A stretch of 40,620 nucleotides of DNA, taken from Escherichia coli (GTDB lineage Bacteria > Pseudomonadota > Gammaproteobacteria > Enterobacterales > Enterobacteriaceae). The translations under genes were made by a program, and so were the position numbers. The DNA lies in the NCBI GenBank assembly GCA_026712415.1, contig GCA_026712415.1_4696.1, one strand, 5' to 3'. Positions 1-40,620 of the stretch are shown here, in pieces (position 1 is the first letter of the stretch; each line of letters opens with the position of its first letter). The notes beneath the pieces are model-generated. The model made no database searches. It was not told the DNA's origin and saw nothing but the letters and a program-made list of their open reading frames with translations.

Positions 1-104
1 AGACGTGCACTGATGGTGAGCGCAAAGAGTTCACCTATTATAAGAAAGATGTAGCGGGTCGCATTGAGATTGCACGTAAGGTTGCAGACAATACGACTCA
101 CTAA
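1..104 (+). CDS. 3' fragment of the 185-aa membrane/coiled-coil protein (duplicate of 40478-40581 from contig wrap-around)
   Basis: Positions 1-143 are identical to 40478-40620; same reading frame and TAA stop (102-104) as ORF 40024-40581. Confidence 0.6.
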   Translation, partial: TCTDGERKEFTYYKKDVAGRIEIARKVADNTTH

Positions 105-111
105 TGGGAGA
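89..111 (+). promoter_or_regulatory. T7-type phage RNAP promoter (phi1.1B-like), overlaps stop codon of upstream ORF
   Basis: CAATACGACTCACTAATGGGAGA, 21/23 match to the T7 consensus, +1 G at 106. Confidence 0.8.
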
Positions 112-122
112 CACTGAAAGTT

Positions 123-160
123 AAACTCAAGGTCATCACATTTGGTGGCCTTCATGATTA
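123..160 (+). promoter_or_regulatory. RNase III processing site (T7 R1.1-like hairpin)
   Basis: AAACTCAAGGTCA...TGGCCTTCATGATT motif, same architecture as T7 R sites. Confidence 0.6.
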
Positions 161-12471: not shown

Positions 12472-12840
12472 ATGGGTTGGGGTAAAAAGATTCGCAAATC
12501 AGTTAAGAAGGCTATCAAGAAAGTAACCAAGCCTATCGAGAAGGTAGTCAAGGAAACTGGTAAGGCAGTCGAGAAGGTCGGGAAGGAAGCTGGTAAGGTC
12601 GTTGGTGGCGTTGCTGGTGCACTTGCTGGTGGTGGTAAGCCTGATGTACAGGTGGTTGAGACACCCGCTGCTGCCGTTCAAGCTGCACCTCCTGCTGCAC
12701 AAATTATCGAGCCACCGAGTAAAGACGATGTAGACTCCGATGATGATGCACAGACTGAATCCGGTAAGAAGAAAGCCCGTGCTGGCGGTAAGAAATCACT
12801 GAGTGTCGCTCGTAGTTCTGGCGGTGGTCTTAATATCTAA
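12472..12840 (+). CDS. gp7.3-like tail/adsorption protein
   Basis: Lys-rich N-terminus and C-terminal ...KKARAGGKKSLSVARSSGGGLNI match recalled T7 gp7.3. Confidence 0.8.
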   Translation: MGWGKKIRKSVKKAIKKVTKPIEKVVKETGKAVEKVGKEAGKVVGGVAGALAGGGKPDVQVVETPAAAVQAAPPAAQIIEPPSKDDVDSDDDAQTESGKKKARAGGKKSLSVARSSGGGLNI

Positions 12841-16897: not shown

Positions 16898-17488
16898 ATG
16901 CGTTCCTATGAAACAACCCTAGAGACAGGCGAAGAGTTGGCTGCGGTCAATGACATCTTGGCCTCTATCGGTGAACCGCCAGTCTCCACTTTGGAGGGTG
17001 ACTCTAACGCCGATGTTGCCAACGCCCGTCGAGTTCTCAATAAGATTAACCGACAGATTCAGTCTAAGGGCTGGACGTTCAACATTGAGGAAGGTCAGCA
17101 GTTGCTGCCTGATGTGTTCAACGGATTGATTCCCTATATGTCTGACTACCTGTCCGTACTGTCTGAAGGAGGCGCGACCGCTTACGTTAACCGTGGTGGT
17201 TACGTCTATGACCGGACTACAGGAACCGATGTGTTCCAGAACCCTATCACTGTGACCATCATTAAACTGAGAGAGTTCTACGAGATGCCTGAATGCTTCC
17301 GCTTCTGGATTGTAACTAAAGCTGCCCGTCAGTTTAACAACAGGTTCTTCGGTGCACCTGAGATTGACGCTGTGTTGGCTGAAGAAGAACAGGAAGCGAA
17401 GATGCAGTGTCACGAGTACGAACTTGACTTCGGTAACTTCAACATGCTTGATGGTGATGCCTTCACTGGTGGTCTGCTGTCTCGTTAA
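16898..17488 (+). CDS. tail tubular protein A (gene 11)
   Basis: [35 protein letters not shown]... matches recalled T7 gp11; AGGAGGA RBS (ORF-track start 16844 lies in the terminator and is rejected). Confidence 0.95.
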
Positions 17489-17715
17489 TAACTTAAGGAG
17501 GTCTCTAATGGCTCTTATTTCACAATCCGTCAAGAACCTGAATGGCGGTATCAGTCAACAGCCGAACATCTTAAGGTTCCCCGAACAGGGTTCCGAACAG
17601 ATTAACGGTTGGTCTTCGGAGACTGAGGGTCTTCAGAAGCGTCCACCTTTTGTCTTCACTAAGACCATTGGAGACCAGAATGCCCTTGGTACAAAACCGC
17701 TCATCCATTTAATCA
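17401..17715 (+). repeat. tandem direct repeat, copy 1 (315 bp; gp11 3' end, RBS, first 208 nt of gp12)
   Basis: 313/315 identical to 17716-18030; differences at 17543 (T vs G) and 17572 (T vs C). Confidence 0.95.
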
Positions 17716-18030
17716 GATGCAGTGTCACGAGTACGAACTTGACTTCGGTAACTTCAACATGCTTGATGGTGATGCCTTCACTGGTGGTCTGCTGTCTCGT
17801 TAATAACTTAAGGAGGTCTCTAATGGCTCTTATTTCACAATCCGTCAAGAACCTGAAGGGCGGTATCAGTCAACAGCCGAACATCTCAAGGTTCCCCGAA
17901 CAGGGTTCCGAACAGATTAACGGTTGGTCTTCGGAGACTGAGGGTCTTCAGAAGCGTCCACCTTTTGTCTTCACTAAGACCATTGGAGACCAGAATGCCC
18001 TTGGTACAAAACCGCTCATCCATTTAATCA
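17716..18030 (+). repeat. tandem direct repeat, copy 2
   Basis: See copy 1; this copy continues into the full gp12 coding sequence. Confidence 0.95.
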
Positions 18031-20201
18031 ACCGAGATAGCGTAGAACAGTATTACGTTGTGTTCACAGGACAGGCAGTCCGAGTGTTCGACCTCAATGG
18101 CAAAGAGTACACAGTGAAAGGTGACTTGAGCTACGTGAAGGTAGGAAACCCTCGTGACGACCTGCGAATGGTAACGGTGGCTGACTACACGTTTATCGTT
18201 AACCGAAACATGGTTGTGCGTGCCGATAAGACACCGCTCTATACTCTGAAAGAGAACGGAGACTGTTTGATTAACGTTCGTGGTGGACAGTATGGGAGAA
18301 CACTTGCATTCACAATAAACAACGTTCGCATTGAGTACAAGATTGCACAAGGTGACAAGCCTGAACATGTACAAGAGACCGATGCACAATGGCTCGTTAA
18401 GAAACTTGCAGGTCTTGCTCGTGCTCACGGCTCCTTCAAGGACTGGAGGTTCGACGAAGGGTCTGGCTTCATACACATAATCGCTCCGGGTAACAGTCAG
18501 ATTAACCAGTTGTCCACCGAGGATGGCTATGCTAACCAGTTGATGAACGCTGTAATGCACACAAGCCAGTCATTCAGTAAGTTGCCAATCGAGGCTCCTA
18601 ATGGGTACACTGTGAAGATTGTTGGTGGCACCTCTAAGACTTCCGACATGTTCTATGTCCAGTATGACAACGTTAAGAAAGTCTGGAAGGAAGTCGCCGG
18701 ATGGGGAGTTGAGAAGGGTCTCAATGGTGACACCATGCCACATGCTTTGGTACGCCAACCAGACGGCTCATTCACTATGCAATCCCTTCCGTGGTCACAG
18801 CGTACCTGTGGCGACATGGACACTAACCCTACTCCGTCTATTGTTGACCAGTCGATTAACGATGTGTTCTTCTTTCGTAACCGCTTAGGGTTCCTCGCTG
18901 GTGAGAACATTGTAATGTCCCGTACATCAAAGTATTTCTCACTGTTCCCTGCGTCCGTGGCTAACCTGTCCGACGATGACCCAATTGACGTGGCTGTGTC
19001 CCATAACCGAATCTCTATCCTGAAGTACGCTGTACCGTTCTCCGAAGAGTTGCTCCTATGGTCAGACCAAGCACAGTTCGTGTTGTCTGCTCAAGGTATC
19101 CTCTCACCGAAGTCAGTAGAGTTGAACCTCACGACAGAGTTCGATGTGTCAGACCGAGCGAGACCTTTTGGCGTTGGGCGTGGTGTGTACTTTGCGTCAC
19201 CTCGTGCTTCCTATACGTCACTTAACCGTTACTATGCGGTACAGGATGTTAGCTCCGTGAAGTCTGCTGAGGATATGAGTGCTCACGTTCCAAGTTACAT
19301 TCCGAACGGTGTGTTCTCCATTCGTGGCTCCGGTACTGAGAACTTTATCTCCGTGCTCTCTGCGAACGCTCCGAGTAAAATCTTCCTGTACAAATTCCTG
19401 TACCTCAACGAAGAGATTGCTCAACAGTCGTGGTCACATTGGGAACTTGGAAGTAACGTAACGGTTCTGGCTTGTGACTCTATCGGCTCAACGATGTACC
19501 TTGTGTTGCGCAACCAGTCCCACACTTGGATGTGCCGAGCACACTTTACGAAGAACTCCATTGACTTCAACGATGAACCATATCGGCTGTACATCGACAA
19601 CAAGATAAAGTATGTGATTCCTAAAGGTGCCTACAACGATGACACTTACACTACCACTGTGAAGCCTGTAGACATCTATGGGATGCAATATTGGACTGGT
19701 AGGTTCTACATTGTGGCCTCTGATGGTCTGGTCTCGTGGTTCGACCCTCCGCGTGGTGGTTGGCCTAATGGTGTCCCTGTGTTGTCAATGAGTGGGAACC
19801 GTGAGGATGAGACAATCTACGTTGGCTTGGCTATCAACTTCCGTTATGTGTTCTCTAAGTTCCTCATCAAGAAGACTGCTGATGATGGCTCGACAGCTAC
19901 CGAGGATATTGGGCGCTTGCAGTTACGCCGAGCGTGGGTGAACTATGAGGACTCTGGTGCATTCACTGTAGAAGTGGAGAACACCTCTCGACTGTTCAGC
20001 TATGACATGGCGGGTGCTCGCTTGGGTTCCAATGCGTTACGCTCTGGTGGGCTTAATGTTGGTACTGGTCAGTTCCGCTTCCCGGTCGCTGGCAACGCAC
20101 AGTTGAATGAAGTACGTATTATCTCTGACCATACTACGCCACTGAACGTTATTGGTTGTGGCTGGGAGGGTAACTACCTGCGTCGTTCTTCTGGTATCTA
20201 A
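17823..20201 (+). CDS. tail tubular protein B (gene 12); alternative in-frame start at 17508 would add a 105-aa N-terminal extension
   Basis: 792 aa from ATG 17823 (T7 gp12 recalled as 794 aa); MALISQSVKNLKGGISQQP and ...GCGWEGNYLRRSSGI match T7 gp12. An identical RBS/start at 17508 is created by the duplication. Confidence 0.9.
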   Translation: MALISQSVKNLKGGISQQPNISRFPEQGSEQINGWSSETEGLQKRPPFVFTKTIGDQNALGTKPLIHLINRDSVEQYYVVFTGQAVRVFDLNGKEYTVKGDLSYVKVGNPRDDLRMVTVADYTFIVNRNMVVRADKTPLYTLKENGDCLINVRGGQYGRTLAFTINNVRIEYKIAQGDKPEHVQETDAQWLVKKLAGLARAHGSFKDWRFDEGSGFIHIIAPGNSQINQLSTEDGYANQLMNAVMHTSQSFSKLPIEAPNGYTVKIVGGTSKTSDMFYVQYDNVKKVWKEVAGWGVEKGLNGDTMPHALVRQPDGSFTMQSLPWSQRTCGDMDTNPTPSIVDQSINDVFFFRNRLGFLAGENIVMSRTSKYFSLFPASVANLSDDDPIDVAVSHNRISILKYAVPFSEELLLWSDQAQFVLSAQGILSPKSVELNLTTEFDVSDRARPFGVGRGVYFASPRASYTSLNRYYAVQDVSSVKSAEDMSAHVPSYIPNGVFSIRGSGTENFISVLSANAPSKIFLYKFLYLNEEIAQQSWSHWELGSNVTVLACDSIGSTMYLVLRNQSHTWMCRAHFTKNSIDFNDEPYRLYIDNKIKYVIPKGAYNDDTYTTTVKPVDIYGMQYWTGRFYIVASDGLVSWFDPPRGGWPNGVPVLSMSGNREDETIYVGLAINFRYVFSKFLIKKTADDGSTATEDIGRLQLRRAWVNYEDSGAFTVEVENTSRLFSYDMAGARLGSNALRSGGLNVGTGQFRFPVAGNAQLNEVRIISDHTTPLNVIGCGWEGNYLRRSSGI

Positions 20202-28134: not shown

Positions 28135-30060
28135 ATGGCTAACAAAATTTCCACTGTACGTACTTACCCGCTGAACGGTGCCGTGAACTTCACGATTACC
28201 TTTGAGTATTTAGCACGTAAGTTCGTCCAAGTGACACTCATCGGGAAAGACCGTAAAGAGTTGGTTCTCAATCAGGACTATCGCTTTACCACTAAGACCC
28301 AAATCACAACCTCCCGTGCGTGGACTGCTGCCGATGGTTATCAGATGATTGAGATTCGTCGATTCACTTCTGCAACCGACCGTCTGGTTGACTTTGCTGA
28401 TGGCTCAATCCTTCGTGCGTATGACCTTAACATCTCACAGATTCAGACGCTGCACGTAGCTGAAGAGGCACGAGACCTAACTGCGGATACCATTGGTGTC
28501 AACAATGATGGTCACTTGGATGCCCGTGGTCGTAAGATTGTGAACCTAGCGTTCGCTACCAGTGACTACGATGCTGTCCCTCTGAAGCAAGTAAAAGAGC
28601 GCGAGTCGTCTGCTTGGAACGCTGTTAACAAGGCCAATGAACACGCTAACCGCTCTAACACTGAGGCTAACCGATCGCGAGATGAAGCTGACCGTGCAAA
28701 ACGTGAAGCTGACCGCTCAACCCAACAGGCAGGTGTCTCTACGGCACAGGCGGTTGAGTCCAAGAAGCAAGCTGACCGTTCCAACTCTGAGGCTAACCGA
28801 GCTAAAGGTTATGCTGATAGTATGACCGCAAGTGTAGCTGAGGCCAAGAAGCAAGCTGACCGTTCTAACTCTGAGGCCAATCGTGCCCGTGATGAGGCCA
28901 ATCGTGCTGCCGGAGAAGTGACTAAGGCTGCTGCTGAGGTTGCCAAAGCCGCTGCACACGTTGCTACCGCTGATGGACATGCTGACAGAGCCAACACTGA
29001 GGCAAACCGCTCCAAGAGTGAAGCTGACCGTGCAAAGACCGAGGCTGACAAGTTAGGGAATATGAATAACTTAGCGGGAACCATTAAAGCGGTTAATGGT
29101 GAGAACGTTGTTTTTAAGAATGATGTTGTAGCACCCGGACAGATTACTGGTGAAAAGGAAGTAAGGGCTGGCGCAGGTCAATCGTTTAGCGTGTTAACAA
29201 GGAACTCGTTGCAGCTTGTGAACCAGAACTTCGCTGATAGAAATATGAGGTTCTTCGTATGGGGGAATGACCAAGGACGTGCAAACGTATTTGAGTTAGG
29301 TGGTAGCGGTAATGGGTACTATATGTATATCCAGAAGGCTAACCTTAACGACACATTTTGCCAGATGCGAGTGAATGGACATATGGAGGCTGCTGGTGGG
29401 CTTACGGTTGGACAATCAGGTGACTTCACTGGAATCTTACAGACTCGCTCACAGAACCTGCTGATGATTAACTCTGCTCGTCGACATATTCAAATGAAAA
29501 CCAGCGATAACTACACCGATGGTTATCTTTACAAAGACCCCGGCGCTGGGGCGTGGAGGCTTAACTTTGGTCAGGCAGCTAACAGGGAGTATACGTTTGA
29601 TTCAAATGGTACATTAACATCCAACTCAGGCTGGTACATTCCACCAGATGGTAACTTATACATCACGAAGTATGATTCTTACATCGACGGTTGGGTCAAC
29701 AAACGCCTTGGAGAACATGCCTACAATAAAAGCGAAGTAAACAACCTAGTCAATGGACGGTTAACTCAAGCGCAAGCTGATGGTCGATACGTCAATAAGA
29801 ATGCTGGGTGGGCTGAGGTCTGGAAAGGCTCTGCTGGTGGTGGTGTCTCGGTAGGTCTCTCACAGGATGTTCGTTGGAGAACCATCTGGATTCAGACCAA
29901 TGGTCGCTGGAACGCCGTTCCTATTGGTGACAATGCGGCTTACTTCATCTCGTCTGATGGTGGTTGGTTGAAGTTCACAATCTCCAACAACGGCAGAACT
30001 TTCCGTAACGACCAAGCCTACCGTTCAGTCCCTACGCGAATCTTAGTTCAAAACCAATAA
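28135..30060 (+). CDS. tail fiber protein (gene 17)
   Basis: 641 aa; N-terminal tail-attachment domain (FEYLARKFVQVTLIG...DGSILRAYDLN) and C-terminal tip (VWKGSAGGGVSV...YFISSDGGWL) match recalled T7 gp17; central region carries ADRSNSEANRA-type repeats. Confidence 0.93.
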   Translation: MANKISTVRTYPLNGAVNFTITFEYLARKFVQVTLIGKDRKELVLNQDYRFTTKTQITTSRAWTAADGYQMIEIRRFTSATDRLVDFADGSILRAYDLNISQIQTLHVAEEARDLTADTIGVNNDGHLDARGRKIVNLAFATSDYDAVPLKQVKERESSAWNAVNKANEHANRSNTEANRSRDEADRAKREADRSTQQAGVSTAQAVESKKQADRSNSEANRAKGYADSMTASVAEAKKQADRSNSEANRARDEANRAAGEVTKAAAEVAKAAAHVATADGHADRANTEANRSKSEADRAKTEADKLGNMNNLAGTIKAVNGENVVFKNDVVAPGQITGEKEVRAGAGQSFSVLTRNSLQLVNQNFADRNMRFFVWGNDQGRANVFELGGSGNGYYMYIQKANLNDTFCQMRVNGHMEAAGGLTVGQSGDFTGILQTRSQNLLMINSARRHIQMKTSDNYTDGYLYKDPGAGAWRLNFGQAANREYTFDSNGTLTSNSGWYIPPDGNLYITKYDSYIDGWVNKRLGEHAYNKSEVNNLVNGRLTQAQADGRYVNKNAGWAEVWKGSAGGGVSVGLSQDVRWRTIWIQTNGRWNAVPIGDNAAYFISSDGGWLKFTISNNGRTFRNDQAYRSVPTRILVQNQ

Positions 30061-33962: not shown

Positions 33963-34405
33963 CCTTATGTACCCTCTATGGTCTACAGGGTCTCTTAGGG
34001 TCTCTCACGTAGTCTCACCTTATGATATAGCCTCTGTGGTTAACCTTATGAGACTTGATGTACCCCTTTAAGAATCCTACAGAAAAATCTGAGTGAGTAT
34101 CTCATAGTTCATAAACACCGAGTCCCCCCCCCTATGGCCTCCTTCAGTCCACCCAAAGAGCCTTCCTCTATGGTAACTCATGGTTTACCTGAAGTCAATC
34201 CTTTTGTGAGACATTGGGTTAACTCTAGGTGTAACCACTAGATATGGTGCTTAGTGATACCTTATGACCACTATATGTAGTCCTCTCTGTGTCCCTATCT
34301 GTAAGTGACCCTAGAGTTATCACCTTATGTCACCTCCTTATGTCTATCCTTATGGCTGCCTATCCTTATGTTAACCTTCAGTCAGTGCCTTATGTTTATC
34401 AGTGA
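33963..34405 (+). repeat. dispersed CCTTATG heptamer repeats (9 copies) flanking the predicted genome terminus, analogous to the T7 CCTAAAG end repeats
   Basis: Copies at 33963, 34018, 34044, 34260, 34334, 34347, 34359, 34375, 34399; five are clustered at 12-24 bp spacing. Confidence 0.7.
34100..34330 (+). other. predicted physical left end of the packaged genome and collapsed direct terminal repeat (extent approximate)
   Basis: TCTCATAGTTCA...CCCCCCCCC at 34100 resembles the recalled T3/T7 left terminus (TCTCA...); lies between gene 19.5 and the early promoters. Confidence 0.4.
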
Positions 34406-34557: not shown

Positions 34558-34590
34558 TAGCTAATACTGGTCATCCTCTCTTTATGTCCA

Positions 34591-34620
34591 CTATAAGAGA
34601 CTATAAGAGACTATAAGACC
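34591..34620 (+). repeat. 3 x 10-bp tandem repeat (CTATAAGAGA)
   Basis: ctataagaga ctataagaga ctataagacc immediately downstream of phiOL. Confidence 0.85.
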
Positions 34621-37282: not shown

Positions 37283-39934
37283 ATGACTAACGTAATCAAC
37301 GCACCAAAGAACGACTTCTCTGACATCGCTAACGCAATCATGCCATACAACATTCTGGCTGACCATTACGGCGCACAGCTTGCAGCTACGCAGTTACAGC
37401 TTGAGCACGAAGCGCACACCGAAGGCGAGAAGCGTTTTCTTAAGGCAATGGAACGTCAAATCAAAGCGGGTGAGTTCGGTGATAACGCAGTGGCTAAACC
37501 GCTCCTGTCATCTCTCGCACCGAAGTTTATCGAGGCGTGGAACGATTGGTTCACTGAAGTGGAAGCGAAGCGTGGCAAGCGTCCAGTAGCCTACAATCTG
37601 GTACAGAAGGTTGCACCTGAAGCTGCTGCATTTATCACACTGAAGGTCACACTCGCTTGCTTGACGAAAGAAGAGTTCACCAACCTGCAATCGGTCGCCA
37701 CTAAGATTGGTCGCAGTATTGAGGATGAACTGCGTTTTGGTCGCATCCGTGACGAAGAAGCGAAGCACTTTAAGAACCACGTACAGGAGGCACTGAACAA
37801 GCGCGTTGGTATCGTCTACAAGAAAGCATTCATGCAAGCTGTAGAAGGCAAGATGCTTGATGCTGGTCAACTGCAAACCAAGTGGACCACATGGACACCT
37901 GAAGAATCAATTCACGTTGGTGTGCGCATGTTGGAACTGCTCATTGGGTCTACTGGTCTCGTTGAGTTACACCGCCCGTTCGCTGGGAACATCGAGAAGG
38001 ATGGCGAGTACATCCAACTGACCGAACAATACGTTGACCTGTTATCTAAACGTGCTGGTGCACTGGCTGCAATCGCTCCAATGTATCAGCCTTGCGTGGT
38101 CCCACCTAAGCCTTGGACTTCTCCGGTCGGTGGTGGCTATTGGGCTGCTGGTCGCAAGCCTCTCTCTCTGGTTCGCACTGGTAGCAAGAAGGGACTTGAG
38201 CGTTACAACGATGTGTACATGCCTGAAGTTTACAAGGCCGTGAACATCGCACAGAATACTCCTTGGAAGATTAACAAGAAGGTTCTGGCAGTGGTCAACG
38301 AGATTGTGAACTGGAAGCATTGCCCGGTTGAAGATGTACCCGCTCTGGAACGTGGAGAACTCCCGGTCAAACCTGATGACATCGACACGAACGAAGCGGC
38401 TCTGAAAGCGTGGAAGAAAGCGGCCTCCGCAATCTACCGCAAAGAGAAGGCACGAGTGTCACGCCGCATGAGCATGGAGTTCATGTTAGGTCAGGCCAAT
38501 AAGTTCGCACAGTTCAAAGCTATCTGGTTCCCAATGAACATGGACTGGCGCGGTCGTGTGTATGCTGTGCCGATGTTTAACCCGCAAGGCAACGACATGA
38601 CCAAAGGCTTGCTGACGTTGGCTAAAGGTAAACCAATCGGTGTCGATGGGTACTACTGGCTGAAGATTCACGGTGCTAACACTGCTGGCGTGGACAAGGT
38701 GGACTTTGCAGAACGCATCAAGTTCATTGATGACAACCATGAGAACATCATGAGCGTTGCGGCTGACCCGATTGCTAACACTTGGTGGGCCGAGCAAGAT
38801 TCTCCGTTCTGCTTCCTCGCGTTCTGCTTCGAGTATACAGGTGTGCAACACCACGGGATGAACTACAACTGCTCTCTTCCGCTGGCGTTCGATGGTAGCT
38901 GCTCCGGTATTCAGCACTTCTCCGCGATGCTCCGTGATGAGATTGGTGGTCGTGCGGTTAACCTGCTGCCAAGCAAAGAGGTACAAGACATCTACCGCAT
39001 CGTAGCGGAACGTGTCAACGAGATTCTGAAGCAAGATGTAATAAATGGCACCGACAACGAAGTCGAAACCGTGACCAATAAGGACACAGGGGAAATCACT
39101 GAGAAGCTCAAGCTGGGCACGAAGGAACTGGCTGGTCAATGGTTAGCATACGGTGTTACTCGTAAGGAGACTAAGCGTTCCGTTATGACCTTGGCGTATG
39201 GTTCCAAAGAGTATGGCTTCCGTGACCAAGTGCTAGAGGATACAATTCAGCCAGCTATCGACGATGGCAAGGGCTTGATGTTCACTCAACCGAACCAAGC
39301 GGCTGGCTACATGGCTAAACTGATTTGGAACGCGGTAACGGTGACAGTGGTCGCTGCGGTTGAAGCAATGAACTGGCTGAAGTCTGCTGCTAAACTGCTG
39401 GCTGCTGAAGTCAAGGACAAGAAGACAAAAGAGGTTCTGCGCAAACGCTGTGCGGTACATTGGGTTACTCCTGATGGCTTCCCGGTCTGGCAGGAATACA
39501 AGAAGCCAGTACAGACACGCTTGAACCTGATGTTCTTAGGCCAGATTCGTCTACAGCCTACCGTGAACACCAACAAGGATAGCGGAATTGATGCTCGTAA
39601 GCAGGAGTCAGGCATCGCACCTAACTTTGTCCACTCAATGGATGGTAGCCACCTGCGCATGACTGTGGTCCGCTCCAATGAGGTCTACGGTGTGGAATCG
39701 TTCGCACTGATTCACGACTCCTTTGGTACTATCCCTGCTGATGCTGGCAACCTGTTTAAAGCAGTGCGTGAAACGATGGTCAACACTTACGAAGAGAACG
39801 ATGTACTTGCAGACTTCTATGAGCAATTTGCTGACCAGTTGCACGAATCACAGCTTGACAAGATGCCTGAGATGCCAGCTAAAGGTTCTCTGGACCTGCA
39901 AGAAATCCTTAAGTCAGACTTTGCGTTTGCCTAA
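37283..39934 (+). CDS. single-subunit DNA-directed RNA polymerase (gene 1)
   Basis: 883 aa (same as T7 RNAP); catalytic and specificity-loop regions conserved; loop reads ...QPTVNTNKDSGIDARKQESGIAPNF with the T7-type Asn at the base-reading position. Confidence 0.98.
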   Translation: MTNVINAPKNDFSDIANAIMPYNILADHYGAQLAATQLQLEHEAHTEGEKRFLKAMERQIKAGEFGDNAVAKPLLSSLAPKFIEAWNDWFTEVEAKRGKRPVAYNLVQKVAPEAAAFITLKVTLACLTKEEFTNLQSVATKIGRSIEDELRFGRIRDEEAKHFKNHVQEALNKRVGIVYKKAFMQAVEGKMLDAGQLQTKWTTWTPEESIHVGVRMLELLIGSTGLVELHRPFAGNIEKDGEYIQLTEQYVDLLSKRAGALAAIAPMYQPCVVPPKPWTSPVGGGYWAAGRKPLSLVRTGSKKGLERYNDVYMPEVYKAVNIAQNTPWKINKKVLAVVNEIVNWKHCPVEDVPALERGELPVKPDDIDTNEAALKAWKKAASAIYRKEKARVSRRMSMEFMLGQANKFAQFKAIWFPMNMDWRGRVYAVPMFNPQGNDMTKGLLTLAKGKPIGVDGYYWLKIHGANTAGVDKVDFAERIKFIDDNHENIMSVAADPIANTWWAEQDSPFCFLAFCFEYTGVQHHGMNYNCSLPLAFDGSCSGIQHFSAMLRDEIGGRAVNLLPSKEVQDIYRIVAERVNEILKQDVINGTDNEVETVTNKDTGEITEKLKLGTKELAGQWLAYGVTRKETKRSVMTLAYGSKEYGFRDQVLEDTIQPAIDDGKGLMFTQPNQAAGYMAKLIWNAVTVTVVAAVEAMNWLKSAAKLLAAEVKDKKTKEVLRKRCAVHWVTPDGFPVWQEYKKPVQTRLNLMFLGQIRLQPTVNTNKDSGIDARKQESGIAPNFVHSMDGSHLRMTVVRSNEVYGVESFALIHDSFGTIPADAGNLFKAVRETMVNTYEENDVLADFYEQFADQLHESQLDKMPEMPAKGSLDLQEILKSDFAFA

Positions 39935-40023: not shown

Positions 40024-40581
40024 ATGTTTACTTTAATCACTTCAGTAGGCGCTCTCGTATCAACCATTCTTGCAGCAACATACTATAATCGTTCAAAGGT
40101 ATTTCTCACTAAGCTAATCAAAGAAGAGAAGAACTCTCATGCACTCAAAGAGAGACTTGAAGATGGTTGGCGAGAGAAGCAGGAACTAGCTGGTCGAATC
40201 CGTACCTTAGAGTTCGAACAACAATATGACATGTCGAACCAACGAGAACTCATCGAGCGTCTACGCGCTGAGGCAGTGGAGTACCGCAAGGAACTTAAAG
40301 AGGCAAAGAGTACCATCCGTGAGTACACTCACAGTGACATCACGTCTATCAAGTTTACTGCTCACATACCGGATGCTGGCTGGAAGCGCACTGAGTTCAA
40401 GCTGGGTCTTGGCTCATGTGGTAAGCAAGTCACTTGCCTACATTGGGTTGAACAAGCCGACCGCTATCTGCTGACAAAGACGTGCACTGATGGTGAGCGC
40501 AAAGAGTTCACCTATTATAAGAAAGATGTAGCGGGTCGCATTGAGATTGCACGTAAGGTTGCAGACAATACGACTCACTAA
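40024..40581 (+). CDS. hypothetical membrane-anchored coiled-coil protein (185 aa)
   Basis: GAGGAAA RBS; N-terminal TM helix, heptad-rich central segment, Cys-containing C-terminal domain; stop codon lies inside promoter 40566-40588. Confidence 0.7.
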   Translation: MFTLITSVGALVSTILAATYYNRSKVFLTKLIKEEKNSHALKERLEDGWREKQELAGRIRTLEFEQQYDMSNQRELIERLRAEAVEYRKELKEAKSTIREYTHSDITSIKFTAHIPDAGWKRTEFKLGLGSCGKQVTCLHWVEQADRYLLTKTCTDGERKEFTYYKKDVAGRIEIARKVADNTTH

Positions 40582-40620
40582 TGGGAGACACTGAAAGTTA
40601 AACTCAAGGTCATCACATTT
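40478..40620 (+). repeat. contig wrap-around overlap (identical to 1-143)
   Basis: Exact 143-bp identity with the window start; the gene order is continuous across it. Confidence 0.9.
40566..40588 (+). promoter_or_regulatory. T7-type promoter (same element as 89-111 through contig wrap-around)
   Basis: CAATACGACTCACTAATGGGAGA. Confidence 0.8.

Follow-up and report, generated by a model that had tools for sequence, protein, structure and literature searches.

The 315-nt tandem duplication across the junction of genes 11 and 12 is almost certainly not a biological feature of this phage. Instead, it is very likely that two co-existing gp12 variants were laid out consecutively by the assembler, or in other words that this is a "heterotype" false duplication. 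Our evidence is the geometry of the repeat, the single copy in sibling contigs and related phages, the ancestral alleles in the siblings, and the false duplications in the siblings' own scaffolds. The initial annotation had left open whether the duplication was real or a mis-assembly; these lines of evidence strongly favor mis-assembly. The sequenced material was probably a mixed phage population with two competing alleles near the N terminus of gp12, K12N and L22S.

The phage and the ends of the window

The window (the whole stretch of DNA that we analyzed, 40,620 nt) is the sequence of a T7-like phage in the genus Berlinvirus. The closest match to it is Enterobacter phage vB_SEqdws-315 (97%), and the next are PhiV-1 and FE44. 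The first and last 143 nt of the window are identical (Table 1), and we considered whether this overlap might be the biological terminal repeat. In T7-like phages, the terminal repeat lies at the physical ends of the genome, upstream of gene 0.3, and the ends of the window do not. Also, the physical ends of FE44 map to other positions in the window, so we rejected this idea. The true terminal repeat, which is 193 bp in FE44, is collapsed to one copy in the window. Because the window ends between genes 1.05 and 1.1, away from the positions of the FE44 ends, the window must be a circularly permuted path through an assembly graph. As the overlap is not biological, 143 nt is the assembler's overlap length. 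The sibling contigs (described below) read straight through this region as a single copy. Without the redundant end, the circle measures 40,477 nt, and removal of the false duplication brings it to 40,162 nt. The actual genome is expected to contain one copy of the 315-nt unit, in a circle of about 40,162 nt if the true terminal repeat is counted once.

The window also contains nine sites that resemble promoters for the phage RNA polymerase, with the core AATACGACTCACTAATGGGAGA, at 90, 614, 2083, 2964, 6752, 14461, 15455, 39943, and 40567. Two of these, at 90-129 and 40567-40606, are a single site that appears twice owing to the end overlap. A 33-nt tandem repeat (1.9 copies) lies at 12536-12598, just upstream of the portal gene, and a 10-nt repeat, ACTATAAGAG (2.9 copies), lies at 34590-34618, about 0.5 kb inside the physical left end. 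Within the tail-fiber gene, there are diverged repeats with 21/42-nt phasing (28631-29049), which probably reflect coiled-coil periodicity.

Table 1. Coordinates of the features discussed in the text (window positions unless a sibling contig is named)
Feature	Position	Strand	Details
Terminal assembly overlap	1..143	+	exact match to 40478-40620; between genes 1.05 and 1.1
Gene 11, tail tubular protein A / adaptor	16898..17488	+	PF17212
Copy 1 of 315-nt unit	17400..17714	+	gene 11 tail, RBS, gp12 codons 1-69
Left exact 143-mer	17400..17542	+	same as 17715-17857; stops directly before SNP 1
897-aa ORF created by the duplication	17508..20201	+	105-aa extension plus gp12; probably not a real product
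Right exact 143-mer	17573..17715	+	same as 17888-18030; begins directly after SNP 2
Novel junction	17700..17730	+	...CATTTAATC, then A, then GATGCAGTG...
Copy 2 of 315-nt unit	17715..18029	+	runs on into the remainder of gp12
Gene 12, nozzle / tail tubular protein B, 792 aa	17823..20201	+	PF25675
Sites differing between window and siblings, gp12	18628, 18915, 19729, 19906
Sites differing between window and siblings, gp15	23100, 23310
Site differing between window and siblings, gp16	26075
Sites differing between window and siblings, RNA polymerase	38535-38837
gp17 variable tip	29831-30020		codons 566-629; codon 629 has five alleles (Y/D/N/S/F)
True terminal repeat equivalent	34100..34296	+	FE44 left end = 34100, right end = 34296
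Variable site	40477..40477	+	A here, C in siblings L009 and L010; g1.05 K152Q
Mis-assembled sibling records JAJCTR010000043, JAJCTS010000045, JAJCTP010000053	L005:1545-2013; L009 N at 340, 1243, 5105, 6041, 9774; L011 N at 480, 885

The repeat and its reading frame

Tandem Repeats Finder reported a repeat at 17400-18030 with a period of 315, 2.0 copies, 99% matches, and a score of 1248. When we compared the bases one by one at an offset of 315, there were only two mismatches: T at 17543 versus G at 17858, and T at 17572 versus C at 17887. The two adjoining copies are identical at 313 of 315 nt, as the initial annotation had described them and in the same place, and the presence of the repeat in the window sequence is confirmed, far beyond chance. 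One base beyond the 315-nt unit is also common to both copies (A at 17715 and 18030). Each unit contains 89 nt from the 3' end of gene 11 (with its stop codon, TAA, at 17486-17488 in copy 1), a 19-nt spacer that holds a ribosome-binding site, TAAGGAGGT, and 207 nt of gene 12. Both differences do change codons as previously claimed, namely N/K at codon 12 and L/S at codon 22. Copy 1 has the derived Asn12 (T at 17543) with the ancestral Leu22, and copy 2 has the ancestral Lys12 (G at 17858) with the derived Ser22 (C at 17887). The junction between the copies (...CATTTAATC followed directly by AGATGCAGTG...; spanning string ...CATTTAATCAGATGCAGTG...) is seamless: one nucleotide is shared and there is no N. 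The entire window contains zero non-ACGT characters.

Gene 11 is intact, and its protein is 100% identical to gp11 from the four sibling contigs. Gene 12 encodes an ordinary full-length ortholog of the nozzle protein of T7 (gp12; PDB 6R21 and 7EY7; PF25675, as recorded on the sibling genes). In a phmmer comparison, residues 1-792 aligned to residues 1-794 of T7 gp12 (PDB 6R21) with E = 0. With one copy of the unit removed, gp12 from the window is unusual compared to T7 gp12 only in its two N-terminal substitutions.

Translation from the first ATG (17508) runs without a break into gp12, and this yields the 105-aa in-frame extension that had been proposed. The second gp12 start is the ATG at 17823, also as proposed, and the ribosome-binding sites of the two starts are identical. 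The extension had been divided into 70 duplicated residues and a 35-aa linker, which is off by one: we computed 69 residues of gp12 and a 36-aa linker encoded by the gene 11 tail in a different reading frame. The longest open reading frame in the window starts even farther upstream, from a GTG at 17352, and would encode 949 aa. The linker contains no stop codon because related phages, too, naturally have an open frame across the gene 11 tail. For example, one homolog (P0001) has a 19-residue N-terminal extension, which is merely the result of an upstream ATG being called as the start in this frame. In relatives too, the stretch of this frame that precedes the gp12 ATG and covers the 3' end of gene 11 (17760-17822) is open, so gene callers can over-extend gp12 even without a duplication. 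Since we judge the duplication to be a mis-assembly, the biology implied by the initial annotation, with a gp12 that carries a 105-aa N-terminal extension, is probably not real, and the 897-aa protein is unlikely to be an actual product.

The boundaries of the repeat match the assembler's overlap

The repeat consists of 143 identical nucleotides, a SNP, 28 identical nucleotides, another SNP, and another 143 identical nucleotides. The last base of the right-hand 143-mer (A at 17715) doubles as the first base of copy 2. Apart from these two flanks, no 143-mer occurs more than once in the circle, and there are no repeated 144-mers. Thus, both boundaries of the repeat match an assembly parameter, as each flank is as long as the contig's own terminal overlap. 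Furthermore, the base directly before the terminal overlap (40477, which is exactly 143 nt from the end of the window) is a variable site in this lineage. The end of the contig, the start of the duplication, and the end of the duplication are each exactly 143 nt from a variable base. This is the signature of an unresolved graph bubble with two alleles that were placed in series.

If a real duplication had been followed by two random substitutions, the chance that both differences would lie at these positions is about 2e-5, or about 2e-4 if we allow for a shift of 1 nt in either direction. The chance that 40477 would be variable is about 8e-4. We also considered a selection bias, in which only those duplications that can be resolved would be assembled. 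However, such a bias would be compatible with all flanks up to 143 nt, and does not account for the extreme corner that is seen.

Siblings and relatives contain a single copy

An exact look-up of the gp11 protein identified four siblings of the window, which are NCBI contigs from one accession series (JAJCTS, JAJCTR, JAJCTP, and JAJCTT). At about 99.9% identity to the window, all four contain one copy of the unit, with G and T at the two sites, which corresponds to Lys12 and Leu22. The junction between the copies was not found in any of these four contigs. Lys12 and Leu22 are also present in the three closest phages and are conserved in T7. Exact look-ups of other proteins from the window (extended gp12, normal gp12, the 949-aa ORF, gp15, and gp17) gave no match, and ecoli_genomes and plasmids contained no closer sequence.

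Comparison with related genomes had been suggested as a check on the duplication, and it gave a single copy not only in the four siblings but in all of the listed relatives. Specifically, all 30 of the records listed, out of 120 from related phages, contain a single copy: our 1701-nt query maps to about 1390 nt in them. The junction sequence had 0 matches in three sequence collections (viral_contigs, metagenome_contigs, and genome_contigs), and none of the proteins among the database hits had the extension or the linker. So, unlike a genuine tandem duplication, this one has a junction that was not recovered from independent data and breakpoints that are tied to the assembler's k.

Sibling scaffolds contain false duplications

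We counted at least 8 tandem false duplications in the sibling scaffolds. They are 205-373 nt long, each lies at a join marked by a single N, and three of the public records (JAJCTR010000043, JAJCTS010000045, and JAJCTP010000053) are mis-assembled. The false duplication in L005 splits the capsid gene, and the one at N9774 of L009 splits the RNA polymerase gene. At three other joins (N340 of L009 and N480 and N885 of L011), versions of the gp17 tip are placed in series, and they differ exactly at the polymorphic sites. Five of the false duplications are perfect, without allelic differences. In one sibling scaffold, the ends overlap by 159 nt across a SNP in gp12.

These joins resemble the one in the window in that they are from the same phage lineage and are tandem false duplications that split genes, some of them at polymorphic sites in tail genes. 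However, the sibling joins always carry one N, and their lengths do not fit a fixed k, whereas the join in the window has no N and has an exact 143/143 geometry. When we looked for fixed-k geometry at the sibling breakpoints, we found no consistent pattern; there was one 142-nt coincidence, which is within chance. We also considered a pipeline that merges any overlap between a suffix and a prefix and otherwise inserts an N. We rejected this because sibling joins with overlaps of 1-4 nt still carry an N.

How two alleles could have been placed in series

The explanation that we prefer is as follows. The sequenced phage stock would have been mixed, with at least two alleles of gp12, K12N (G to T) and L22S (T to C). 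These substitutions are 29 nt apart and would be on different molecules. In an assembly graph with 143-nt overlaps, this pair of variants would form a bubble whose branches are each 143 + 30 + 143 = 316 nt. The assembler or a scaffolder might then have kept both branches in series instead of picking one, so that the left flank leads into allele A, then allele B, and then the right flank. If the two branches share one base, this would give the 315-nt period. The in-frame 105-aa extension would be an accident, arising because 315 is a multiple of 3 and because the gene 11 tail naturally lacks stop codons in this frame. We infer two elements of this account, namely the absence of reads across the junction and the identity of the joining program.

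The placement of both alleles adjacent to each other in one sequence is a documented artifact (Ko et al. 2022, Genome Biol 23:205, PMC9516828), and the window closely resembles the heterotype false duplications of the Vertebrate Genomes Project terminology. Two alleles are retained side by side, the copies differ only at the allelic sites, the boundaries are set by the assembly, independent assemblies have a single copy, and a spurious gene structure results. However, the source in this case would be a mixed population of haploid phages rather than a diploid, and the scale is just 315 nt, as set by the 143-nt overlap of the assembler's graph. Also, gaps are listed as a typical hallmark of false duplications (Ko et al. 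2022, PMC9516828), but in the window, the copies adjoin without a gap or an N.

Some other observations do not fit easily with an artifact. Besides being seamless where each comparable sibling join carries one N, even where short overlaps exist, the junction contains k-mers that a pure k-mer graph could not invent, and a blunt join of the two branches would yield a period of 316 nt, not 315 nt. More weakly, the period is a multiple of 3, a full ribosome-binding site and ATG are retained, and the construct would be viable. We considered whether the base at 17715 might be an N that was filled in or substituted, which would imply k = 143 in a node-centric graph with branches of 314 nt. This would agree with the 315-nt period, but it predicts a terminal overlap of 142 nt instead of the observed 143 nt. 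Overall, the seamlessness of the junction is the sole point in favor of a real junction, and it is outweighed by the three-fold coincidence at 143 nt.

Alternative explanations

A genuine 315-bp in-frame tandem duplication could have formed in this lineage by illegitimate recombination at 1 nt of microhomology, possibly between a K12N genome and an L22S genome. Besides the seamless, N-free junction, a real duplication would fit with a period that is divisible by 3 and a frame that is open, with identical ribosome-binding sites at both starts, and with the intact gene 11, and normal gp12 could still be made. The tail genes of this lineage are also under strong selection. However, for both boundaries to lie exactly 143 nt from the differences, which is also the length of the terminal overlap, would be a coincidence with a probability of about 1e-4 or less. 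Because neither copy is ancestral, a real duplication would need two extra nonsynonymous hits within 630 nt. As described above, the duplication was not found in the 4 siblings, in any of the listed relatives, or in the three sequence collections. Recombination is active in T7, so a 315-bp direct repeat is expected to be unstable and readily lost, which is another argument against a real duplication. Finally, three strands of the platform jelly-roll, which docks on two subunits of gp11, come from the N-terminal 45 residues of gp12 (Cuervo et al. 2019, PMC6702177). The 105-aa extension would add a second copy of the platform strands along with a hydrophobic, Cys-rich linker, so it would probably be harmful to assembly, although normal gp12 could start at the second ATG. 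Given all of this, we consider a real duplication to be very improbable. The same is true of its consequence, which would be two isoforms of the nozzle: ordinary gp12, and a version in which the platform strands are present twice. Each N terminus would have a different adaptive substitution.

Alternatively, contigs with overlapping ends might have been placed in series regardless of any alleles, and the two mismatches might be errors in base calling or in the consensus. As five of the false duplications in the siblings are perfect, assemblies from this lineage do also join overlaps without polymorphism. However, the mismatches in the window are exactly 143 nt from each end, as for a bubble, rather than at error-prone ends, and random errors would lack such symmetry. 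Both mismatches are also nonsynonymous changes of conserved residues, and the gene they affect is evolving in this lineage. This makes an artifact that is independent of alleles even less probable than a real duplication.

The probable gp12 alleles and the evolving lineage

Both copies in the window are non-ancestral, each with a single derived allele. This is the pattern expected from two competing alleles, and not the simplest outcome of a duplication. Leu22 hardly varies across 25 homologs of gp12, and Lys12 is shared by close relatives and T7. Neither Asn12 nor Ser22 was found among these 25 homologs. Both substitutions are within the 45-residue N-terminal segment that gives strands to the platform domain of gp12, which contacts gp11. 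Much likelier than a real duplication is that K12N and L22S are genuine alleles in competition within an evolving population, located at the surface where gp12 docks on gp11, and the two alleles are possibly adaptive.

Nearly every difference that separates the window from its siblings is nonsynonymous. These changes are concentrated in genes for tail and ejection proteins and the polymerase (gp12, gp15, gp16, RNA polymerase, and the multi-allelic tip of gp17; Table 1). It is what an evolving, polymorphic lineage would show, and it looks like phage-host co-evolution or an experimental-evolution series.

If taken at face value, the record for the window would give a mis-annotated "tail tubular protein B" of 897 or 949 aa and a false claim of a duplicated gene segment. 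The record should be corrected to have a single copy, with the two variant sites reported. More broadly, comparing the lengths of repeat flanks to the contig's own terminal overlap is a diagnostic for alleles that were placed in series in viral assemblies. The probable K12N and L22S alleles in the platform segment may interest those who are running this apparently co-evolving phage lineage.
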